The translations under genes and the position numbers were made by a program. The notes below the pieces were generated by a model that worked only from the letters and a program-made list of their open reading frames with translations, did not search any database and was not told the origin of the DNA. A stretch of 35,631 bases of DNA from Pyrinomonadaceae bacterium. GTDB lineage: Bacteria > Acidobacteriota > Blastocatellia > Pyrinomonadales > Pyrinomonadaceae. The stretch is from the NCBI GenBank assembly GCA_035563275.1, contig DATMVI010000520.1:1-35631 (forward strand). Reading direction: 5' to 3'. Below are positions 13,786 through 31,043 of this stretch, piece by piece. How positions within the stretch are numbered: position 1 is the stretch's first letter; every line of letters starts with the position of its first letter.

Positions 13786-16700
13786 TCAGGCGCGCCGGAT
13801 GGTGATGGCCAGCTTCGCGCCGCCGATGTCAACCTCCTCCGTGTGCTCCGGCCCGGCGAGCCGGTTGTATTCGAGCGCTGAGATTAAGCCTTCGCCCTTG
13901 ATGAAATCCTCGTGGTCGCGGACGGCTTTGAGCAGCGCTGCGTCGGCGTCGAGGCCGAGCGCGATGTGGTCGGACACGTCCATGCCGGCGTTCTTGCGCG
14001 CGTTCTGCACGTGGCGCAGCACGTCGCGCGCCTGCCCCTCCGCGATCAGTTCCGGCGTCAGGTTCGTGTTGAGCGCGACGAGGTAGCTGCCCTCCTCGAC
14101 GGCCGCGTAACCTTCGGGACTCTTCACGTCGACGAGGAAGGCGTCGGGCGCGAACTCCATCGTCTCGTCGCCGACGCGGACGGGCGTCTTCTCGCCGCGC
14201 CGGACGTTGACGGCGACCTGCCGCGGGTCAACCTCCTTCAGGGCTTTGACGAACTGCGGCAGCCTGCCGCCGAGAGCGCGGCCGACGACCGGCAGGTTGG
14301 GCCGCAGCGAGTAGCTGACGAAGTTCGTGTCGAAGTCGAGCCGCGTCACCTGCTTGGCGTTGAGTTCTTCCTTGATCAACTCCTCGAACTTGCCGAGCGC
14401 GGCCTGCTCCCTCTCGGTGCCGACGCGCACCAGAATCTCGGGCAGGGGCTGGCGCACCTTGACCGACGCGCCGGCGCGCGCCGCGCGGCCGAGGTCGATG
14501 ATCTTCAGCAGCAAGTCCATGTCGGCCAGCAGCGCCTCGTCAATCAGCGCGGGGTCGGCCGCGGGCCACTCGGCGAGGTGGACGGAGGCGGGCGCGTCCG
14601 GCTCGACGGCCCGCACGAGGTTCTGGTATATCGCCTCGGTGACGAAGGGCACCATCGGCGCGCCGAGCTTGCTGACCGTGACCAGCGCCTCGTAGAGCGT
14701 GAGGTAGGCGGCGCGCTTGTCGGCGTCGTCGGCGCTCTTCCAGAAGCGCCGGCGGTTGCGCCGCACGTACCAGTTCGAGAGGTCGCGGACGACGAACTCG
14801 TTGAGGGTGCGCGCGGCCGAGGTCACGTCGTACTCGTCGAGGCTGCGCGTGACCGACTCGGCGAGGCGGTGCAGCTTGGCCGTCAGCCAGCGGTCGATCT
14901 CCGGCCGCTCGGCGTGGGGCAGCGGCGTCCGCAGGTCGGGTTCGTCGAGGTTGGCGTAGAGCACGAAGAAGCCGTAGACGTTCCAGAGCGTGAGCAGGAA
15001 ATCCTTGACCACCTCGGAGACGTGCGCGGGGTTGAAGCTCTTGTTCGCGTCGGGCGGGCTGGAGGTGTACAGGTACCAGCGCAGCGCGTCGGCCCCCTGC
15101 TCGTTGAGCACGCTCCACGGGTCTACCGCGTTGCCCCTCGACTTCGACATCTTCTGGCCCTTCGCGTCGTTGATGAAGCCGAGCACGATGCAGGTCTTGA
15201 AGGCCGAGGTCTCGGGAAACACGTGGGCGAGCGCGCCGGCCGCGACGCCGCGCTCGGCGTCGGCCCGCGCCGTCAGCAGCGTGGCCAGCGCGTGCAGGCT
15301 GTAGAACCAGCCGCGCGTCTGATCCATCGCCTCGCAGATGTAGTCCGCCGGGAAGCGCGACGGCAGCAGGCCGGCGTTCTCGAAGGGATAGTGCCACTGC
15401 GCGTAGGGCATCGCGCCCGACTCGAACCAAACGTCCACGGTGTCGGGCACGCGGCGGTAGGTCTGCCCGCCGCGCTCGAAGGTGATCTCGTCGATGTAGG
15501 GGCGGTGGAGGTCGAGCGTGTCGAGCCGCCGGCCCGTCAGCTCTTCGAGCTCGGCGACGCCCGAGACGCAGATGCTCTCCTCGCCGTTCTCGCTGACCCA
15601 GACGGGCAGCGGCGCGCCCCAGTACCTCTCGCGCGAGATGGCCCAGTCGATGTTGTTCTCCAGCCACTTGCCGAAGCGGCCGGTCTTGATGTTCTCGGGC
15701 AGCCAGTTGATGCGGTAGTTGTTCTCCAGCAGCTTGTCCTTGACGGCGGTGGTTTTGATGTACCAACTGGTCTTGGCGTAGAAGAGCAGCGGCGAGTCGT
15801 CGCGCCAGCAGAAGGGGTAGGCGTGTTTGACGCGCTCGGAGCGGTAGAGCAGGCCGCGGCGTCTGAGGTCGCGCGAGATGAGCTTGTCGGCCTCCTTGAA
15901 GAAGAGGCCCGCGTAAGGCCCGGCGGCCTCGGGCGCGTCCGGCGCTCTGACCTCCGGGTGCACCTTGCCCGTGCGGTCGACGGAGAAGAGGGTCGGCAGC
16001 CCGTGCCTGCGCCCGACTTCGAGGTCGCCGTAGGCCGGGGCGATGTGGACGATGCCCGTGCCGTCTTCGACGGAGACGAAGTCGTCGGCGATGACGGCGA
16101 AGGCCCGCGCGAGGTCTTCGCTTTCGGGCGCGCGGCCCGAGAGGATTTGCTCGTAGGTCAGCCCGGCCAGCGCCTCGCCGGGGAACGCGCGCAGCAGTTT
16201 GTAGTTGCCCTCGCCGAACACGTCCGGGGCCAGCGCGGCGGCGAGGATGTAAAGCTCCGTCTCCCCCTCCTGCCCGTGCGCGGCGGGCGCTTCGAAGAGG
16301 CCGTACTCGGCGTCGGCGCGCACGGCGAGCGCGGTGTTGGCGCCGAGCGTCCACGGCGTCGTCGTCCACGCGAGGAAGGAGACTCGTCTCCCCGCCTCCC
16401 CCGGCGTCAACAGCCCGGCCCCCGCGAGCGCGTCGCGGCGGGCCGGGAACTTCGGCCACACCGAGGGGTCGTCCACGTCCTCCTTCATGCCCTGCGAGAC
16501 TTCGTGGTCGGCGAGGCTCGTGTTGCAGCGCGGGCAGTGCATCGTGGTCTTGTAATCCTGATAGAGCAGGCCGCGCTCCCAGAAGGATTTCAGGATCCAC
16601 CAGCACGTCTCGATGTAGCCGTTCTCGTAGGTGATGTAGGCGCGGTCGAGGTCAACCCAGAAGCCGATGCGCTCGGTCAGCCGGTTCCAGTCCTGTATGT

Positions 16701-17079
16701 AGCGGAAGACCGACTCGCGGCAGAGCCGGTTGAACTCGGCGATGCCGAACTTCTCGATGTCCTGCTTGCCGGTCGAGCCAATCTCCTTCTCGATCTCGAC
16801 CTCGACGGGCAGGCCGTGCGTGTCCCAGCCGCCGCGCCGCTCGACGCGGAAGCCGCGCATCGTCTTGTAGCGCGGGAAGAGGTCTTTGAAGGCGCGGGCG
16901 CTGACGTGGTGGATGCCGGGCCGGCCGTTGGCCGTCGGCGGCCCCTCGTAGAAGACGTAGTCGCCCCGCGGCGCGGGCTTCCCGACCGAGGCCGCGAAAA
17001 TCTCGTGCTCCCGCCAGAAGCGGATGATCTCTTCTTCTAATTGTGGGAAGCTGACGTTCCGGTTGATGCTCTTGAACAT
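13786..17079 (-). CDS. ileS: isoleucine--tRNA ligase (long, type 2-like form)
   Basis: 1097 aa. HIGH-type motif PPTANGRPGIHHV, KMSKS motif KMSKSRGN, CP1 editing region, WHYPFEN. Confidence 0.95.
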   Translation of the reverse strand: MFKSINRNVSFPQLEEEIIRFWREHEIFAASVGKPAPRGDYVFYEGPPTANGRPGIHHVSARAFKDLFPRYKTMRGFRVERRGGWDTHGLPVEVEIEKEIGSTGKQDIEKFGIAEFNRLCRESVFRYIQDWNRLTERIGFWVDLDRAYITYENGYIETCWWILKSFWERGLLYQDYKTTMHCPRCNTSLADHEVSQGMKEDVDDPSVWPKFPARRDALAGAGLLTPGEAGRRVSFLAWTTTPWTLGANTALAVRADAEYGLFEAPAAHGQEGETELYILAAALAPDVFGEGNYKLLRAFPGEALAGLTYEQILSGRAPESEDLARAFAVIADDFVSVEDGTGIVHIAPAYGDLEVGRRHGLPTLFSVDRTGKVHPEVRAPDAPEAAGPYAGLFFKEADKLISRDLRRRGLLYRSERVKHAYPFCWRDDSPLLFYAKTSWYIKTTAVKDKLLENNYRINWLPENIKTGRFGKWLENNIDWAISRERYWGAPLPVWVSENGEESICVSGVAELEELTGRRLDTLDLHRPYIDEITFERGGQTYRRVPDTVDVWFESGAMPYAQWHYPFENAGLLPSRFPADYICEAMDQTRGWFYSLHALATLLTARADAERGVAAGALAHVFPETSAFKTCIVLGFINDAKGQKMSKSRGNAVDPWSVLNEQGADALRWYLYTSSPPDANKSFNPAHVSEVVKDFLLTLWNVYGFFVLYANLDEPDLRTPLPHAERPEIDRWLTAKLHRLAESVTRSLDEYDVTSAARTLNEFVVRDLSNWYVRRNRRRFWKSADDADKRAAYLTLYEALVTVSKLGAPMVPFVTEAIYQNLVRAVEPDAPASVHLAEWPAADPALIDEALLADMDLLLKIIDLGRAARAGASVKVRQPLPEILVRVGTEREQAALGKFEELIKEELNAKQVTRLDFDTNFVSYSLRPNLPVVGRALGGRLPQFVKALKEVDPRQVAVNVRRGEKTPVRVGDETMEFAPDAFLVDVKSPEGYAAVEEGSYLVALNTNLTPELIAEGQARDVLRHVQNARKNAGMDVSDHIALGLDADAALLKAVRDHEDFIKGEGLISALEYNRLAGPEHTEEVDIGGAKLAITIRRA

Positions 17080-17355: not shown

Positions 17356-19023
17356 ATGAGCAGATCGAAGAACTGGATCGAACAGACCGCCGACAAGGTC
17401 GAGGAGTTCGCGCGCCAGCGGAAGGGCGACGGCGCGAAGATCGTCTGCGCGTCGGGCATCAGCCCTTCCGGGCCGATTCACCTCGGCAACCTCCGCGAGA
17501 TCATCACCGTCCACCTCGTCACCGAGGAGTTGCGGCGGCGCGGGCGCGAGGCCGAACACATCCACTCGTGGGACGACTTCGACCGCCTGCGCAAAGTGCC
17601 GGCCGGCGTGCCGCAGGAGTTCGCGCAGCACATCGGCCGCCCCATCAGCGACATCCCCGACCCGGCCGGCGAGTACGAGTCTTACGCCATGCGCTTCATG
17701 TCCGAGTTCGAGCGCAGCGTCGCCCGGCTCGGCATCGGCCCGCGCTACGTGCGCCAGTCCGTCGCCTACCGCCGCGGCGACTACCGGGAACAGATCAGGG
17801 TCGCGATGCGGAAGCGGTTCGAGATTTTCGACATCCTCGTCAAGTACCAGACGCCCGGCCGCCACGAGCGGCCCGCCGAGGAGCGCCGCGCCGAGTACTA
17901 CCCCTTCAAGGTTTATTGCGAGGACTGCGGGCGGGACACGACGGTCATCGAAGCCTACGACGACGCGGCCTCGACCGTCTCTTACGCGTGCCAGTTCCGC
18001 GAGTACCGCGGCTCGTTCAGCCTCGGCGAGAAGGTCGCCGGCAAGCTCGTCTGGAAGGTGGACTGGCCGATGCGCTGGAGCTACGAGGCGGTCGACTTCG
18101 AGCCGGGCGGCGAGGATCACTCCGCGCCGGGCAGCAGCTACACCGTCGGCAAGCAGCTCGTGAAGGAAATCTACGGCGGCGCCGCGCCCTACTTCATCGG
18201 CTACGCCTTCGTCGGGCTCGCCGGCCGCTCGAAAATCTCCAGCTCCTTCGGGACGAGCGCGACGCCCGAGGCGGCCTTGGACATCCTCGAGCCGTGCATC
18301 GTCCGCTGGCTCTACATCCGCCGTAACGCCGGGCAGAAGTTCGACATCAACTTCGGGCAGGAGGTGGTGCGCCTCTACGACGAGTGGGACTCGTTCGTCG
18401 CGCGCGTGGCCGCGGGCAAGGCGGACGAGGCCGAACGGCTCGTCTACGAGCGCTGCGTCCGCACGTCCGAGGGCGAGGTGGCGAGGTCGAAGTTGACCAT
18501 CCCCTTTCGCATCCTCAGCTCGGCGGCCGACATCACGCAGGGTAACGTCGAACAGATTCTCCGCATCGCCTCCGACCACCTCGAAGACCCGCCCCCGCGC
18601 GAAGAATTGAGGCGGTCGCTTGAGCCGCGCCTGACCTGCGCCATCAACTGGGCCGTCAACTACCTGCCCGAGGACGAGCGGACGCGCATCAGGTCGGGCC
18701 ACGACCGCGCGACCTACGAGTCGCTCGACGAGGCGCACCGCCGCGGCATCCGGATGCTGCTCGAACGGCTCGACGAGTACTGGAGCCTGCAAGGTCTGAC
18801 GACGCTCGTCTACGGCGTCCCCAAACTCCTCCTCGGCCTGCCCATCGACGCGCCGCCTAGCGAGGAGATCAAGCCGGTGCAGCGCGGCTTCTTCATCGCC
18901 GTCTACCAACTCCTCTGCGGGAGCGACACCGGCCCGCGCCTCCCCACCCTCTTCCTCTCGCTCGGCAAGGAACGCCTGCGGGCGCTCTTAACACCGGGCG
19001 GAGGGGACGGGGAGCAGGCTTAG
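17356..19023 (+). CDS. lysS: lysine--tRNA ligase, class I
   Basis: 555 aa. SGISPSGPIHLGNLREI (class I HIGH-like) and overall class I LysRS organisation, with KISSSFG in the KMSKS position. Confidence 0.85.
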   Translation: MSRSKNWIEQTADKVEEFARQRKGDGAKIVCASGISPSGPIHLGNLREIITVHLVTEELRRRGREAEHIHSWDDFDRLRKVPAGVPQEFAQHIGRPISDIPDPAGEYESYAMRFMSEFERSVARLGIGPRYVRQSVAYRRGDYREQIRVAMRKRFEIFDILVKYQTPGRHERPAEERRAEYYPFKVYCEDCGRDTTVIEAYDDAASTVSYACQFREYRGSFSLGEKVAGKLVWKVDWPMRWSYEAVDFEPGGEDHSAPGSSYTVGKQLVKEIYGGAAPYFIGYAFVGLAGRSKISSSFGTSATPEAALDILEPCIVRWLYIRRNAGQKFDINFGQEVVRLYDEWDSFVARVAAGKADEAERLVYERCVRTSEGEVARSKLTIPFRILSSAADITQGNVEQILRIASDHLEDPPPREELRRSLEPRLTCAINWAVNYLPEDERTRIRSGHDRATYESLDEAHRRGIRMLLERLDEYWSLQGLTTLVYGVPKLLLGLPIDAPPSEEIKPVQRGFFIAVYQLLCGSDTGPRLPTLFLSLGKERLRALLTPGGGDGEQA

Positions 19024-19092: not shown

Positions 19093-20142
19093 CTACCCGC
19101 CGGCCTCCCCTTCCTCCGCGGGCTTCCTCATGCGCGCCGAGACTTTGCTGCCGTGCTTGTCGGCCTTGACGGTGATGCGCTGGACGTAGACCCGGGTCGT
19201 CGCCGCGTTCTCGTGATCCAAAGCCTCCTGCGCTTCCAGATAACTGCCGGTCTCCTCGGCGACGATGCGCGCGTAGGTGTGACGCGTCTGGTGGACGTGG
19301 ACGTGGCCGATGCCGGCCTCCGCCGCGTAGAGCTTGAGGTTCTCGGCGAAGGAGCGCGACGAGAGCGGCGCGCCCGGCTTGCCGGCGCGGTCGTGGCGCG
19401 TCCAGAGCGGGCGGGGCGAGCCGAGCACGTCCTCGCGCCCCGCCGCCCTGAGGTAGGCGACCAGCGCCTCGTAGGCCGCCGCATCGCCCACCTCGCGGCC
19501 GACGAACTTCCCGCCTTTGCGCCGGTACTTGATGACGAGCCGGCCGCCCGCGCGTTCGAGGTCGCTGCCCCTGAGCGAGATCACCTCGCTGCGGCGCAGG
19601 CCCGTCAGGAAGAAGAAGAGCAGCAGCGCGTAGTCGCGCTTGCCGACGACCGAGCCGGCCTCGGCCCGCGCGCGCGCGGCGTCGAGCAGGCGGTTCATCT
19701 CGTCGTCGGAGAGCGCCTTCGTCAGCTCCGACTGGTAGGGTCGCGGGTAGCGCGGGCGGGCCTGCGCCGCGGGGTTGGCGCGGATGTGCGCGGAGAGTTG
19801 CGGGTCGCTCATCAGCCAGCGGTAGAAGGCCGAGACGCGCGAGACGCGCGCGTAGACGGTGGCCGGCTTGAGGCCGCGCGCCTCCATGTCGGCGCGCCAG
19901 CGCGCCACGTCCTCCGGCCCCACGTCGCCGGGGTGCTTGGCCGCGAACTCGAAGAAGTTGACGACGGCCTGCACCTTGTCGCGCAGCTTGTCGCGGCGGT
20001 CTAAGGTCTCGGGGCGCGTGTTGGCGTCGGCCCAGAGCGTGACGGCGCGGCGCAGCGCCTCGGCCGAGTCGCGCGCGGCGAGGGCGTTCGTGGCCGGCGT
20101 GGCCCCGCCCTCAGACTCGCGCCCGCTCTCGTCCGTCATCAT
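19093..20142 (-). CDS. tyrosine-type site-specific recombinase/integrase
   Basis: 349 aa. N-terminal SAM-like core-binding region. Catalytic-domain motifs: GLRRSEV (Arg I), HQTRHTYA (His-x-x-Arg), HENAATTRVYV (His/Tyr). Confidence 0.85.
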   Translation of the reverse strand: MMTDESGRESEGGATPATNALAARDSAEALRRAVTLWADANTRPETLDRRDKLRDKVQAVVNFFEFAAKHPGDVGPEDVARWRADMEARGLKPATVYARVSRVSAFYRWLMSDPQLSAHIRANPAAQARPRYPRPYQSELTKALSDDEMNRLLDAARARAEAGSVVGKRDYALLLFFFLTGLRRSEVISLRGSDLERAGGRLVIKYRRKGGKFVGREVGDAAAYEALVAYLRAAGREDVLGSPRPLWTRHDRAGKPGAPLSSRSFAENLKLYAAEAGIGHVHVHQTRHTYARIVAEETGSYLEAQEALDHENAATTRVYVQRITVKADKHGSKVSARMRKPAEEGEAGG

Positions 20143-27889: not shown

Positions 27890-27934
27890 GACGCGGCCCG
27901 GCCCCGGCGACACCGACGGAGGCCGGGCCGCGTC
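27890..27934 (+). terminator. strong GC hairpin after the hydrolase gene
   Basis: gacgcggcccggcc (27890-27903) pairs perfectly with ggccgggccgcgtc (27921-27934): a 14-bp stem and 17-nt loop. There is no clear U-tract. Confidence 0.5.
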
Positions 27935-28065
27935 CCGAACTCACTCCCGATAAAACCTCGGACAATCCTCCCCTTTCCCCTGTTCGTCTTAAACTAAATC
28001 AAAACTAAATATATTGACTTCCCTTCCCCCCTTTCGGTATCGTCGCTGCCTCTAAGGGAGGCAGC

Positions 28066-28266
28066 ATGAACGACACCCACCGACCCGACGATCTGATCCG
28101 CACCACCGAAGCGCGCAAACTGCTCGGCGTGAGTACGGTGAAGATGACGCAGCTCATCAAGCACGGGGTCTTCACGATCTACGAAGACCTCCTCGACCGC
28201 CGCGTCAAGCTCATCCGCCGCTCCGAAGTCGAGGCCCTGAAACACAGGAGCGTGAAAGCCGCATGA
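28066..28266 (+). CDS. small helix-turn-helix DNA-binding protein (excisionase/MerR-like HTH_17 type)
   Basis: 66 aa. TTEARKLLGVSTVKMTQLIKHGVF. Its stop overlaps the parA start (ATGA). Confidence 0.6.
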   Translation: MNDTHRPDDLIRTTEARKLLGVSTVKMTQLIKHGVFTIYEDLLDRRVKLIRRSEVEALKHRSVKAA

Positions 28267-29084
28267 AGACCATCGCCATCGCCGTCGCCAACCAGAAGGG
28301 CGGGGTCGGTAAGACCACCCTCACCCGCGAGTTGTCGGCCTGCTGCGCCCTGCGCGGCTTCCAGACGCTGGCCATAGACTGCGACCCGCAGGGCAACCTG
28401 ACTTCCTCGTGGGTTGACCCGGACGTTTACGAGGCCACCCTCTCGCACGTCCTGATCGAGCCGGAGTTGCCGACCGGCGTGAAGGCCGAACCCCTGCCGC
28501 TCGACGATGCCATTGTCGAAAGCCCGGTCGAGGGCCTCGACCTCGTCCCGGCCGACATCCGCCTCGCGCGCTTCGAGATGCAGCCCGACTACCTCACGCA
28601 CCGCCTGCGCAATCAGGTGCAGGAGCACGGGCGCGCTTACGACCTCGTCTTCATCGACTGCCCGCCGCAGCTCGGTAAGCTGCTGACGGCCGCCCTCTAC
28701 TCGGCCGACTACGTCGTCGTCCCCTGCGCGGCCGACGCGATGGGGCTTCAGGGACTCTCCGACCTCGCCTTCACCATCGAGCAGGTGCGGAAGAACGTCA
28801 ACTCCGGCCTCCAGATGCTCGGGGCCGTCATCAACCTCTACAAACCTTCGCGCAACCTCTCGGCCGAGTCGCGGCAGGCCGTCGAGGCCGCGGTCGGGCT
28901 GGTGGGCCACGTCTTCGACACCAACCTGCACGACTACTCGAAAGTGGCCGAGGCACCCTCGCAGAAGCTCCCGGCCGTGCTCTACGCCAAGTCGCACCGC
29001 GCCGCCGACCAGCTCTGGAGCCTGACCGACGAAGTGCTCGACAAGCTGAAGCTTTCCCGGCAGAAGATCGCCGCCGTCAAGTGA
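28263..29084 (+). CDS. parA: ParA/Soj-family partition ATPase
   Basis: 273 aa. Deviant Walker A NQKGGVGKTT, then DCDPQGN and IDCPP. Confidence 0.9.
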   Translation: MKTIAIAVANQKGGVGKTTLTRELSACCALRGFQTLAIDCDPQGNLTSSWVDPDVYEATLSHVLIEPELPTGVKAEPLPLDDAIVESPVEGLDLVPADIRLARFEMQPDYLTHRLRNQVQEHGRAYDLVFIDCPPQLGKLLTAALYSADYVVVPCAADAMGLQGLSDLAFTIEQVRKNVNSGLQMLGAVINLYKPSRNLSAESRQAVEAAVGLVGHVFDTNLHDYSKVAEAPSQKLPAVLYAKSHRAADQLWSLTDEVLDKLKLSRQKIAAVK

Positions 29085-29092
29085 GGTCGTAG

Positions 29093-30217
29093 ATGGCCGA
29101 GACTAAGCCTAAAGCGAACAATTCCCTGCGGACGCCGAAGCCGAAAAAACTGGGCCTCTCGGTTCCGCCCGCGCTGCGCCTGCCGCACGAAGAACTGATT
29201 CGGGCGGCACAGACCCCGCCCGAACCGGCCGAGCTGCTTGAATCAACTATGCCTAGTCAGACTAGTCTGACTAGTCTGACTAGGCATACTCAGGACGCCT
29301 CCGAAGCGACGCCGGTCTCCCCCGTCCGCGATTACACGAAAGTCGCCAACTCGATCACGCGCGAGGCGATCCCGGCCGGCGTCTTTAAAGGCAAGAGCAA
29401 ACAGCTTTACGACGCCCTCTACCAACTCACGCGCGGGGCCGTCGTCCCCGTCAGGAGCGTACGCATTTCGCGCCCCCGCCTGATGAAGAAAGCCGGCATC
29501 GGCGCGCGCGTCACTTTCGAGGCCAACGTCGCGCACCTACAGGCGGAGGGACTCGTCACCGTGCGCCACATCGCCGGCGAGCACGAGGGCAACGAGTACA
29601 CCGTCCACCTGCCCGAAGAGACGGCAGAGAGTATGACTAGTCATACTAGTATGCCTAGTCTGACTAGTCAGACTAGGCATGCCCAGAAACTAGACAGACT
29701 AGTCAGACTAGAAACTAGTCAGACTAGGCATACTTCAATTGCTGAAGAATCAACAACTTACGAGGTGCCTAAGACTTCTTTTAAGACTAATACTGAGAAA
29801 ACTGATGATGATGAGGCTCTCGCCGATTTCGTCGCCGCCGTGAGACAGGCGACAAGGGAGATCACCGGCAGGGAATTGTCGGTTGCGGAGAGGCAGCGTT
29901 GGGCCGAGTTGGCCGAAGTGCTCGTCACCGAGTTGAAGATCGCCGCGGGGCGCACGACCGTCTCATCCGTCCCGGCATTCCTCGCGGAGCACCTGCGCCG
30001 GCGCCTCTGGAAAAAGGAGAAGCGGCAGATTGAGGCTGAGGCGGCCGACGCGGCGTCGCCCGCGCCGACCCCGAAGGTGGACGCCGGGCAGTGCCCGGAC
30101 TGCTTCGGGACGGGAATGTGGTATCCGCAGGGGTACGAAAAGGGGGTTGCGCGCTGCCGCCACGAAAAGCTGACGCCCGAGGTAGGGGACTCAGACCCGG
30201 AGCAGACGCCGGCCTGA
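29093..30217 (+). CDS. initiator-like or centromere-binding-like protein with winged-helix region, internal DNA iterons and C-terminal CxxC...C zinc-ribbon-like motif
   Basis: 374 aa. The wHTH-like segment is ISRPRLMKKAGIGARVTFEANVAHLQAEGLVTV. Peptide repeats TSLTSLTRH / TSQTRH come from the 9-bp DNA repeats. C-terminus has CPDCFGTGMWYP...CRHEK. No family was recognised with certainty. Confidence 0.4.
   Translation: MAETKPKANNSLRTPKPKKLGLSVPPALRLPHEELIRAAQTPPEPAELLESTMPSQTSLTSLTRHTQDASEATPVSPVRDYTKVANSITREAIPAGVFKGKSKQLYDALYQLTRGAVVPVRSVRISRPRLMKKAGIGARVTFEANVAHLQAEGLVTVRHIAGEHEGNEYTVHLPEETAESMTSHTSMPSLTSQTRHAQKLDRLVRLETSQTRHTSIAEESTTYEVPKTSFKTNTEKTDDDEALADFVAAVRQATREITGRELSVAERQRWAELAEVLVTELKIAAGRTTVSSVPAFLAEHLRRRLWKKEKRQIEAEAADAASPAPTPKVDAGQCPDCFGTGMWYPQGYEKGVARCRHEKLTPEVGDSDPEQTPA
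29248..29288. repeat. 41-bp near-perfect palindrome built from 9-bp CTAGTCWGA units (iteron cluster 1)
   Basis: tatgcctagtcagactagtctgactagtctgactaggcata. It contains 4 CTAG tetramers and only the central 2 nt break the symmetry. Confidence 0.85.
29633..29732. repeat. iteron cluster 2: ten CTAG-centred 9-bp-phased units, including a perfect 30-bp palindrome (29651-29680)
   Basis: atgcctagtctgactagtcagactaggcat is self-complementary. Flanking units are ctagtcata, ctagtatgc, ctagacaga, ctagtcaga, ctagaaa, ctagtcaga, ctaggcata. It is followed by an AT-rich tract at 29733-29815. Confidence 0.85.
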
Positions 30218-30257: not shown

Positions 30258-31043
30258 CTAAATATTCAGCTTTTTCGCGCCTTCCTGCCGTTTTTGCCTT
30301 CTCCGCTCAATGTGGAGCAGGGCGATGCTCACCTGATCGACGGCCGGCAACAGTTCGTCCACGTCTTCGTCTGTTAACTCCTCCGGCCTGATCTCCCTCA
30401 AAGCCCGCCCGATGCGCCGCAACTCCTCGAAAAAGAGGTGACTTGAGTCGAGCGGGTCGGCCTCCAGCAACTCGTCCGCCTTCTCGACGGCGGCCATCTC
30501 GGTCGCCAAAGGGTCAGGCTCTCTCAACTCGCCCAGAGCCTCTTTGACCCTCTCGCGCAGCATCATGCCGGTCTCCTGCTTCAGCAGGTGCGTCTCAAGC
30601 AGCTTCCGCCGATGGGTGCGCGCCTCCGATTCCGTGCAGCCGAGTCGCTTGGCGCTGAGGCGCGCGAGCTGGTGCGCCTCGAAGAGGTTGAGGTCTCCGC
30701 GCTCAAGCGGCTCCCGCACGTCCTGAGGGAAATCCAGAATCGGGAGGTACTGGCCGACGAAACTCCTCACCGAGACCCTCGTTTCACGCGACAAGATGTC
30801 GCGCAGGCTGGAGTCTACGCGCAGGAGCAGTTCGCGCGCGTGGCGCGGCGGCCGCCCGCGGCGGCTTTCGGTCGGCTGGCGCATGTAGAGGCCGCGCACC
30901 GAGTTGAGCAGAGAAGATAAGTTCTTGTGCGAGCGCGGGATGGCATCGGGCAGGGAAGCGCGCAGGTGTTCCAGCACGCGGCCGACGCCTTCGGTCGAGG
31001 CCAGCGGGTCTACACGTCTCGTGCGACGCCTCGTGGTTTTCAA
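30258..31043 (-). CDS. hypothetical protein, tentatively ParB/KorB-like HTH protein
   Basis: 261 aa. FPQDVREPLERGDLNLFEAHQLARL resembles the ParB segment LPxxVxxLIxxGxLSxGHARxLLxL. It has an acidic C-terminus. No clear ParB-box (GERR) was seen. Confidence 0.3.
   Translation of the reverse strand: MKTTRRRTRRVDPLASTEGVGRVLEHLRASLPDAIPRSHKNLSSLLNSVRGLYMRQPTESRRGRPPRHARELLLRVDSSLRDILSRETRVSVRSFVGQYLPILDFPQDVREPLERGDLNLFEAHQLARLSAKRLGCTESEARTHRRKLLETHLLKQETGMMLRERVKEALGELREPDPLATEMAAVEKADELLEADPLDSSHLFFEELRRIGRALREIRPEELTDEDVDELLPAVDQVSIALLHIERRRQKRQEGAKKLNI

Follow-up and report, generated by a model that had tools for sequence, protein, structure and literature searches.

A putative replication origin inside the gene of its own candidate initiator in Pyrinomonadaceae (Acidobacteriota)

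Why does one reading frame of a GC-rich contig contain two arrays of short palindromic boxes and, directly after the second, an AT-rich tract? The contig, from a Pyrinomonadaceae bacterium (Acidobacteriota), is 35,631 bp long with 68% GC, and the whole of it is referred to here as the window. The frame, labelled X, codes for 374 aa at 29093-30217 on the forward strand. A sequence-only reading of the window had asked whether the arrangement is an origin within the initiator gene, as with phage lambda O, or alternatively a centromere for the adjacent ParA system. We retrieved 74 genomic (L001-L074), 80 metagenomic and two viral loci for comparison. The results make it probable that a plasmid-type replicon has its vegetative origin here, located inside the gene of its own initiator X and composed of iterons and an unwinding element. 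As judged by sequence and analogy, X would represent a new initiator family that works like lambda O/ori-lambda, pSK41 Rep and repC, with no demonstrable membership in those families. The features within the gene are as follows.

29093-30217, + strand: ORF X, proposed replication initiator, 374 aa; open frame of an unannotated family.
29248-29288: array A, four boxes (GCCTAGTC, GACTAGTC, GACTAGTC, GACTAGGC) at 9-bp spacing; codes for a predicted disordered segment upstream of the winged helix.
29375-29617, + strand: coding segment of the winged-helix DNA-binding domain (predicted model), between arrays A and B.
29635-29729: array B, ten boxes, of which five lie at 29635-29678, three at 29688-29713 and two at 29713-29729.
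29733-29815: AT-rich tract, proposed DNA-unwinding element, GC 0.36; conserved DNA core at 29768-29815.

The window contains 19 CTAG tetramers against about 104 expected window-wide from base composition, and 14 of the 19 lie within 472 bp (29253-29724), all of them in X (binomial P = 6e-23). Outside X, five were found in about 35 kb of the window, and the flanks of homologous genes contain 0-1 per kb. The genome avoids CTAG elsewhere; thus, the box arrays are built from a tetramer that is otherwise avoided. Each of the 14 CTAGs is centred in an 8-bp box. Exact copies of GACTAGTC, which is palindromic, make up five of these boxes, and nine carry one or two differences. The spacings are 9, 9 and 9 bp within array A, 357 bp between the arrays, and 9, 9, 9, 9, 17, 9, 9, 7 and 9 bp within array B. 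Most of this layout had been described correctly beforehand: the 14 CTAGs in less than 500 bp, the CTAGTCWGA units with 9-bp phasing (seven exact occurrences were counted, and the box spacing is mostly 9 bp), the perfect 30-bp palindrome of array B at 29651-29680, and the translation of the repeats as TSLTSLTRH and TSQTRH within an open 374-aa frame were all reproduced. The 41-bp structure at 29248-29288 is palindromic as well, yet the description of it as a near-palindrome was too cautious, since array A is a perfect 20+1+20 palindrome. The folding of both arrays as single-stranded DNA was far above that of shuffled sequences (z = -9.3 and -7.2). In array B, the three boxes at 29688-29713 stand in a different codon phase and read KLDRLVRLE; this segment is also conserved, and the conserved segment in array B is AQKLDRLVRLETSQTRH. 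The two arrays bracket the winged-helix coding segment of X, and no other repeat array was found in the module that X forms with the upstream genes for ParA and a small helix-turn-helix (HTH) protein.

Selection on the repeats was examined at the codon level in 31 CTAG-type genes, in which the repeat segments were compared with the rest of the same genes. ACT accounted for 84% of the Thr codons in the repeats (28% elsewhere in the gene), AGT for 78% of Ser (9% elsewhere), CTA for 50% of Leu (7%), AGA/AGG for 91% of Arg (24%), and CAT for 96% of His (36%). Where the peptide alternates between M and H, P and R, L and Q, or T and S, the two codons are reverse complements of each other (ATG/CAT, CCT/AGG, CTG/CAG and ACT/AGT), as is expected where a reading frame runs through palindromic DNA sites. 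Synonymous sites in the linker are more conserved than the amino acids. Homologues at least 56% identical to X carry 10-23 CTAGs inside the gene against the 0-1 per kb of their flanks. The sequence-only reading had held that homologues conserving the TSQTRH peptides without the DNA would speak against it; the homologues keep the DNA, with the CTAG-forming codons ACT, AGT, CTA, AGG and CAT dominating and boxes occurring in a second frame. It had also asked for the same repeat-in-gene layout in related elements, and this layout is kept across 67 homologues, including those with different boxes, and in 13 loci that lack ParA. On these codon patterns, the boxes and the AT-rich tract are selected at the nucleotide level and not as peptide. 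At 29093-29483, the gene call in the protein collection (P0001) shortens X to 244 aa with Met131 as the start, and a second assembly of the same locus (L160) is called at the full 374 aa. The atypical codon usage of the repeat-coded part probably misleads gene finders, so that X is mis-started.

The AT-rich tract follows the second array at 29733-29815, as had been noticed beforehand; its GC content is 0.36, and that of the remaining gene 0.63-0.68. The 80-bp stretch with the lowest GC of the whole 35.6 kb starts at 29730 (GC 0.34). In 67 aligned genes, the GC content at third codon positions (GC3) was 0.23 at residues 214-240 against 0.59-0.68 in the two folded domains; the dip was present in 66 of the 67 genes and was equal in CTAG-type genes and those with other box types. 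The core of the tract in the window (29768-29815) reads CCT AAG ACT TCT TTT AAG ACT AAT ... GAT GAT GAT GAG, with AAGACT-N6-AAGAC at 29771, and the core common to all box types in the codon alignment is CCT AAG ACT TCT TTT AAG ACT AAT ... GAT GAT GAG GCT TTC GCC. Several synonymous positions are nearly invariant (ACT in 63/67, TTT in 60/67, and GAT in 65/67 at two codons), and at residue 222, where the amino acid can be T, V or S, 66/67 genes nevertheless have a T as the third base. AAGACT-N6-AAGAC was found in 43 of the 74 X genes versus one occurrence in 961 kb of flanks. By these alignments, the boxes vary with type, and the AT-rich element after them is constant and selected as DNA. Lambdoid origins likewise combine type-specific iterons with a shared AT-rich region. 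An internal promoter was considered as another explanation of the tract and is unsupported, since no sigma-70-like promoter lies within it.

The variability of the boxes became evident from the paralogues. At 32-53% identity to X they have no CTAG, and other motifs are repeated in them 5-10 times each: CTACCCCCTC, AGTACTC/TACTCAGAG, CCACGCCAC, CCACCCAC, CCACTCAC, CTACCACCCC, CCCTGGGCAG, GGTATTACC, GTACGGTA and others. In all box types the copies occupy the same two positions of the gene (alignment residues ~50-70 and ~180-212), and the last copies of the other types are usually inverted and in another frame. Furthermore, the predicted recognition-helix signature co-varies with the box type, also across the clades linked to ParA and those linked to an AAA_22 ATPase; SERTLLKN together with CCAC boxes is common to clades with different partner ATPases. 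The window X carries the signature IGARVTFEAN, which is specific to the GACTAGTC box type. The pairs of box type and helix are listed below.

GACTAGTC box type: recognition helix RVTF[DE]AN.
CTACCCCCTC box type: recognition helix EVTLR.
AGTACTC box type: recognition helix STKTLY.
CCAC(G/C)CCAC box type: recognition helix SERTLLKN.
CCCTGGGCAG box type: recognition helix STHTLRDN.

Eleven metagenome-assembled genomes (MAGs) hold 2-5 copies of X. Among the 25 pairs of copies within a MAG, no pair had the same box type, versus 7.3 expected (permutation P ~1e-4), and each of the 11 has exactly one GACTAGTC-type copy. This exclusion is the pattern expected of incompatibility determinants and indirectly points to such a role.

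X has more than 2235 homologues at 90% clustering, and a profile search of 1.84 billion representatives put the family at 850 clusters at 50% identity, with only the close members listed. Those with a taxon label come from metagenomes and MAGs of Pyrinomonadaceae/Blastocatellia, and every named one is a "hypothetical protein". Searches of X against Pfam, NCBIfam, PHROGs and PDB sequences assigned no family (Pfam gave nothing even at E<=10), and Pfam matched none of 67 family members, including by Phage_rep_O and RepA_N (PF06970). The PHROG match "replication initiation O-like" was marginal (E = 0.039), hhalign between the X family and lambda O gave no significant alignment (Prob 0.07%, E 0.69), and the ParB, ribbon-helix-helix (RHH) and KorB models of Pfam and NCBIfam did not match X. 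None of the 72,556 PLSDB plasmids searched by tblastn matched X.

The structure of X was then considered from AlphaFold (AF2) models, which had a predicted local distance difference test score (pLDDT) of 60 for the whole protein and 69 for the domain alone. The modelled layout comprises a basic N-terminal tail, a winged helix at ~95-175 and a helical C-terminal domain at 237-320, and the C-terminal end is a Cys/His zinc-ribbon-like element (C334, C337, C355, H357). Disorder is predicted for residues 1-21, 36-90, 176-200 and 208-237, which correspond to the tail and to what the arrays and the AT-rich tract encode; the box-coded segments (36-90 and 176-237) have a pLDDT below 50. The top PDB fold matches of the winged helix were the N-terminal domains of RepA_N initiators (5kbj_H, 4pql and 4pt7; TMq 0.54-0.56, root-mean-square deviation 3.6-4.0 over 84 columns, E 0.01-0.05), with generic winged-HTH (wHTH) regulators only slightly behind. 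When full-length X was compared with viral models (Foldseek, BFVD), the named top matches were a replisome organizer, lambda GpO N-terminal and a replication initiator (E 8e-5 to 1e-3); their TM-scores were low (0.16-0.3) because of the flexible linkers. In one relative, P0380, a DnaA domain-I-like module at residues 406-469 replaces the zinc-ribbon end (Pfam DnaA_N 24.1 bits at a cut-off of 24.6; PDB match 4tps, E = 0.047), which is a weak hint at replication.

Two small contigs among the related loci bear on the replicon itself. L051 is a 10,653-bp contig with identical 141-bp ends and L141 a 9,767-bp contig with identical 127-bp ends, the length of the overlap being that of the assembler k-mer in both cases (10.5 and 9.6 kb, respectively); both are apparently circular. 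L051 encodes four Crp-like regulators, an Xre HTH protein, ParA, X, a cyclase, an alcohol dehydrogenase and two response regulators; L141 encodes an IS3 transposase, ParA, X, a single-stranded DNA-binding protein (SSB), two HTH_17 proteins and some small unknown ORFs. No recognisable Rep or initiator gene besides X was found on either contig, and, by gene content, X is the only plausible initiator on both. In L141, all the top repeated 8-mers are in X, and the detrended cumulative GC skew reaches its minimum (4857) where array B ends. X of L051 contains the sole tandem repeat of that contig as well as its lowest-GC window. Across the loci, GC skew changes sign at X, with values of -0.06 to -0.02 in the 4 kb upstream and +0.04 to +0.03 in the 3 kb downstream, and flanks outside the module still differ (paired Wilcoxon P = 0.004, n=37).

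Taken together, these findings suggest how the origin could work. X dimers would use the recognition helix to read neighbouring boxes, and on array B they would oligomerise; this would distort the DNA and melt the adjacent AT-rich tract. The C-terminal helical and zinc-ribbon part would then recruit the helicase or primase of the host, in the manner of lambda O, pSK41 Rep and RepC. Array A, about 360 bp upstream, may have an auxiliary part in looping, handcuffing or copy control, or it may be a cargo site for ParA. ParA, co-transcribed just upstream, would segregate the replicon and in doing so probably contacts the basic tail at the N-terminus of X.

This proposed origin was compared with known systems. 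In lambda, the middle of the initiator gene contains initiator-binding repeats and, next to them, an AT-rich tract (PMC7466680). X has the same arrangement, as known from sequence alone, and it further resembles lambda O in that an N-terminal DNA-binding part and a C-terminal recruitment part would be joined by an origin-coded linker, and in that "lambda GpO N-terminal" proteins are among its best viral fold matches. In lambdoid phages the repeats vary together with the O N-terminal domain and the AT-rich part is shared; likewise, the boxes of X vary with the recognition helix and the AT-rich core is constant. Unlike lambda O, X has no demonstrable sequence relation to that family (the Pfam, hhalign and PHROG results above). 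Its gene has two arrays flanking the DNA-binding domain where lambda has one, the boxes are 8 bp at 9-bp spacing where lambda iterons are 18-19 bp, the partner gene is an upstream parA where lambda has a downstream P-type helicase loader, and the context is a plasmid or chromid. Hence, the earlier suggestion of a lambda O-like origin within the initiator gene is supported by the layout (repeats, AT-rich tract, 67 homologues), in the sense of working like lambda O and not of belonging to its family (no link by Pfam or hhalign).

A second comparison is with the RepA_N initiators. The winged-helix N-terminal domain of pSK41 Rep binds Rep boxes located centrally in rep, and the linker coded by the origin is dispensable; its C-terminal domain binds the host primase DnaG, and divergent RepA_N members are mutually compatible (PMC5703833). 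Origins inside rep have precedents in pSK41 and pT181 (PMC5703833), and RepA_N boxes are semi-palindromic repeats of 8-9 bp (PMC7145576). X is like pSK41 Rep, pTZ2162 RepA and pAD1 RepA in having boxes inside the gene, in linker-coding segments that are predicted to be disordered in X, and its winged helix finds 5kbj, 4pql and 4pt7 marginally ahead of generic regulators. Unlike them, none of the 67 X family members matches PF06970, the X gene carries an additional array further upstream, the protein has a basic tail at its N-terminus and a zinc-ribbon-like C-terminus, and its host belongs to Acidobacteriota where RepA_N plasmids are those of Firmicutes.

In repC, oriV lies in the central A+T-rich region of the coding sequence, a synonymous mutation raising GC kills replication, and iterons are absent (PMC3155836). 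As in the repABC operons of Alphaproteobacteria, a ParA-type gene and a proposed initiator share one operon with a proposed intragenic A+T-rich origin, and several compatible cassettes coexist per genome. X differs in its 14 boxes, in the lack of a ParB (RepB) gene between ParA and X, and in having no relation to RepC (domain searches of the module detected neither ParB nor RepC). More generally, X resembles iteron-type theta replicons, with multiple candidate initiator-binding repeats next to an AT-rich putative unwinding element. The plasmids P1 (incC/incA), F and RK2 have two groups of initiator repeats; the first adjoins the AT-rich origin, and the second, at a distance of a few hundred bp, serves copy control by handcuffing. 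X has two repeat groups as well, one of them adjoining an AT-rich tract. In P1, F and RK2 the arrays flank rep or lie outside it in non-coding DNA, the iterons are 19-22 bp and the initiators belong to the Rep_3/RepA family; unlike these, the arrays of X are inside the proposed initiator gene and consist of 8-bp boxes.

Several points weigh against an origin. We infer both the binding of X to the boxes and its replication activity from sequence, and at the sequence level X has no link to any known Rep family. Model confidence is moderate (pLDDT 60-69) and the PDB fold E-values are marginal (0.01-0.05). The circularity of L051 and L141 is deduced only from terminal overlaps of k-mer length, the skew minimum of L051 lies about 0.3 kb past the end of X, and the GC-skew signals are small and confounded by gene orientation; the skew of the window alone is ambiguous. 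Errors in MAG binning could affect the co-residence statistic. A DnaA-box search found none near the locus. The order of parA and X, 8 nt apart, and the conserved basic N-terminal tail fit a ParB-like centromere-binding adaptor, and the short contiguous boxes in mixed orientation resemble type Ib centromeres.

The copy of X in the window raises a further difficulty. The contig has no terminal overlap, hence circularity is not indicated, and the same non-circular contig carries the genes for isoleucyl-tRNA synthetase (IleRS) and lysyl-tRNA synthetase (LysRS); because of these two facts, this copy could sit on a chromid or in the chromosome. The two genes are those for an IleRS with DUF5915 (13786-17079, - strand) and a class-I LysRS (17356-19023, + strand). 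A tyrosine recombinase gene (19093-20142) adjoins them, and radical-SAM/SPASM, thioesterase and nonribosomal peptide synthetase (NRPS) genes lie within about 15 kb. The synthetase genes may be extra resistance-type copies on an accessory replicon, or core genes making the replicon a chromid. Across the loci, the flanks of X hold accessory or metabolic genes, often with a tyrosine recombinase close by.

The alternatives depend largely on the genes around X, which in the window are the following.

27991 and 28002, + strand: candidate operator, AAACTAAAT twice, 11 bp apart; consensus match only, low confidence.
28014-28043, + strand: candidate sigma-70-like promoter of the HTH-ParA-X operon, TTGACT-18-TATCGT; consensus match only, low confidence.
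28066-28266, + strand: small HTH_17 / excisionase-family DNA-binding protein, 66 aa; weak Pfam, NCBIfam and PHROG matches.
28263-29084, + strand: ParA-type Walker ATPase, 273 aa; AAA_31 4e-42, CbiA 7e-22, ParA_partition 2e-26, PHROG ParA-like 2.5e-53.
30258-31043, - strand: ORF Y, conserved hypothetical protein, 261 aa; convergent to X here, no Pfam match.

The alternative that survives best takes X for a ParB-like adaptor and the arrays for the parS/parC centromere of the ParA system, with replication starting elsewhere. ParA lies directly upstream of X in 59 of the 74 related loci at gaps of 5-39 nt, the place of a centromere-binding protein in type Ib-like ParABS systems with a Walker-type ParA; neither the module nor the plasmid L141 has another repeat array; and the exclusion of box types would be explained by incompatibility in partition just as well as by incompatibility in replication. 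Short boxes that adjoin each other in both orientations are known from type Ib centromeres such as the omega heptads of pSM19035 and parH of TP228. The N-terminal tail of X also changes with the type of upstream ATPase, being a basic LRTPxPKKKLGL in ParA-linked copies and F.DLLKK in AAA_22-linked copies, and for this reason a contact between the tail and the ATPase is suggested. Against a centromere alone stand the 13 loci without ParA (L029, L044, L049, L060, L062, L064-L068, L070, L071 and L074), all of which have an AAA_22 ATPase of about 300 aa in the same place and keep both the arrays and the GC3 dip; accordingly, the cis features belong to X and not to ParA. Moreover, a centromere has no need of an AT-rich tract, yet synonymous sites are conserved there in 66/67 genes, and L051 and L141 would be left without a recognisable initiator. 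No known ParB, RHH or HTH-class centromere-binding protein was matched next to parA, the modelled fold of X is like that of initiators (wHTH) and not like ParB, RHH or KorB proteins, and one relative (P0380) has the DnaA_N-like module. We therefore regard a centromere alone as unlikely; a centromere role for ParA is possible and is most plausible as an addition to the origin role.

In such a combination, X bound to its intragenic arrays would both open the AT-rich origin and, through an N-terminal tail matched to the ATPase, serve as the adaptor for segregation cargo, with array A as a candidate cargo or handcuffing site. We hold this combined role only tentatively, as rather doubtful and clearly less probable than the origin itself. 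ParA identity is 83-95% within the GACTAGTC type and 30-38% in most other types, and the AAA_22 ATPase could be a helicase loader or a partition motor.

It is far less probable that the arrays are regulatory or recombination sites, that is, roadblocks for autorepression by X, elements of copy control and handcuffing, or a site for multimer resolution or tyrosine-recombinase integration. Tyrosine recombinase genes do occur within 0.2-9 kb in the window, L075 and L076, the first gene of the operon is excisionase-like, and the long perfect palindromes could extrude as cruciforms. However, the core sites of recombinases are single units of 28-40 bp and not 14 boxes in two arrays, recombinases are linked to the module inconsistently and are absent from L051 and L141, and the conserved AT-rich core, the link between helix and box, and the skew minimum would be left unexplained. 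The idea that the repeats are low-complexity Thr/Ser/Gln-rich peptide linkers produced by slippage, without DNA function, draws on the predicted disorder of the linkers and the recurrence of TSQTS-like peptides in homologues, and it is already contradicted to the point of being negligible by codon choice fixed on rare codons in GC-rich genomes, by the same DNA box being translated in two frames, by the alternation of Q/L, M/H and P/R as reverse-complement codons, by the avoidance of CTAG in the flanks, and by paralogues with unrelated boxes and inverted terminal copies at the same positions.

An origin inside X remains the explanation that we prefer. As to the other parts of the locus, the stop of the HTH_17 gene overlaps the start of parA, and 8 nt separate parA from X; an HTH_17 homologue was found upstream of ParA in 29 related loci. 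The AAACTAAAT pair sits just 5' of the sigma-70-like promoter, ahead of the HTH_17 gene, and is a candidate operator of the operon. The gene upstream of it ends in a GC-rich hairpin (27890-27934), and an Rfam scan of 27.5-31.7 kb gave nothing above threshold. In a soil metatranscriptome run, a 228-nt contig was identical to 29903-30130, in the C-terminal part of X, and a 188-nt contig had one mismatch to 28463-28650 in parA. This is weak evidence that the HTH-ParA-X operon is expressed in situ, and DNA carry-over is possible. The ORF Y family (259-261 aa) has 830 homologues at 70-78% identity, and searches of Pfam, NCBIfam, PHROGs and PDB sequences gave no family for it. Its position varies between downstream (convergent) and upstream of the ParA-X module. 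ORF Y was rejected as the reader of the boxes, because its identity is still 70% in L037 and L038, two loci with different boxes (ACGCCAC-type) in their X genes; it is probably an accessory protein.

Relatives of X were found in only two of 2.9 million viral contigs. One of them, L077 (IMG/VR, 55.7 kb), carries a CTAG-type relative without the zinc ribbon, together with genes for an integrase, a HerA/TrwB-like ATPase and Baseplate_J. By its gene content, the same putative initiator type is also used by a phage-like element. A prophage replication module was rejected as the general context given that only these two viral contigs carry a relative, although the L077 copy is near a baseplate gene.

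What the findings mean concerns both the gene and its hosts. The locus is a clear natural case of a DNA code overlaid on a protein code, in which palindromic sites force T/S, L/Q, M/H and P/R codon pairs into a tolerant disordered linker. A large unannotated family has been identified, and its cis-acting origin can be predicted base by base. Acidobacteria, which rank with the most abundant bacteria of soils, are hardly accessible to genetics; the searches made here found no characterised native replicon of this lineage, and the two natural, apparently circular elements of about 10 kb, L051 and L141, could seed shuttle vectors. Box types with matching recognition helices would define incompatibility groups, and with distinct groups up to five such replicons could coexist per genome; some Pyrinomonadaceae genomes may hold several plasmid-type replicons, as their co-resident copies differ in box type. 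If X should act in both replication and partition, the parA-X unit of about 2 kb would be a complete, self-contained and specificity-coded replicon module, and its diversification into at least ten box types would allow multipartite genomes with up to five such replicons to persist in Pyrinomonadaceae.

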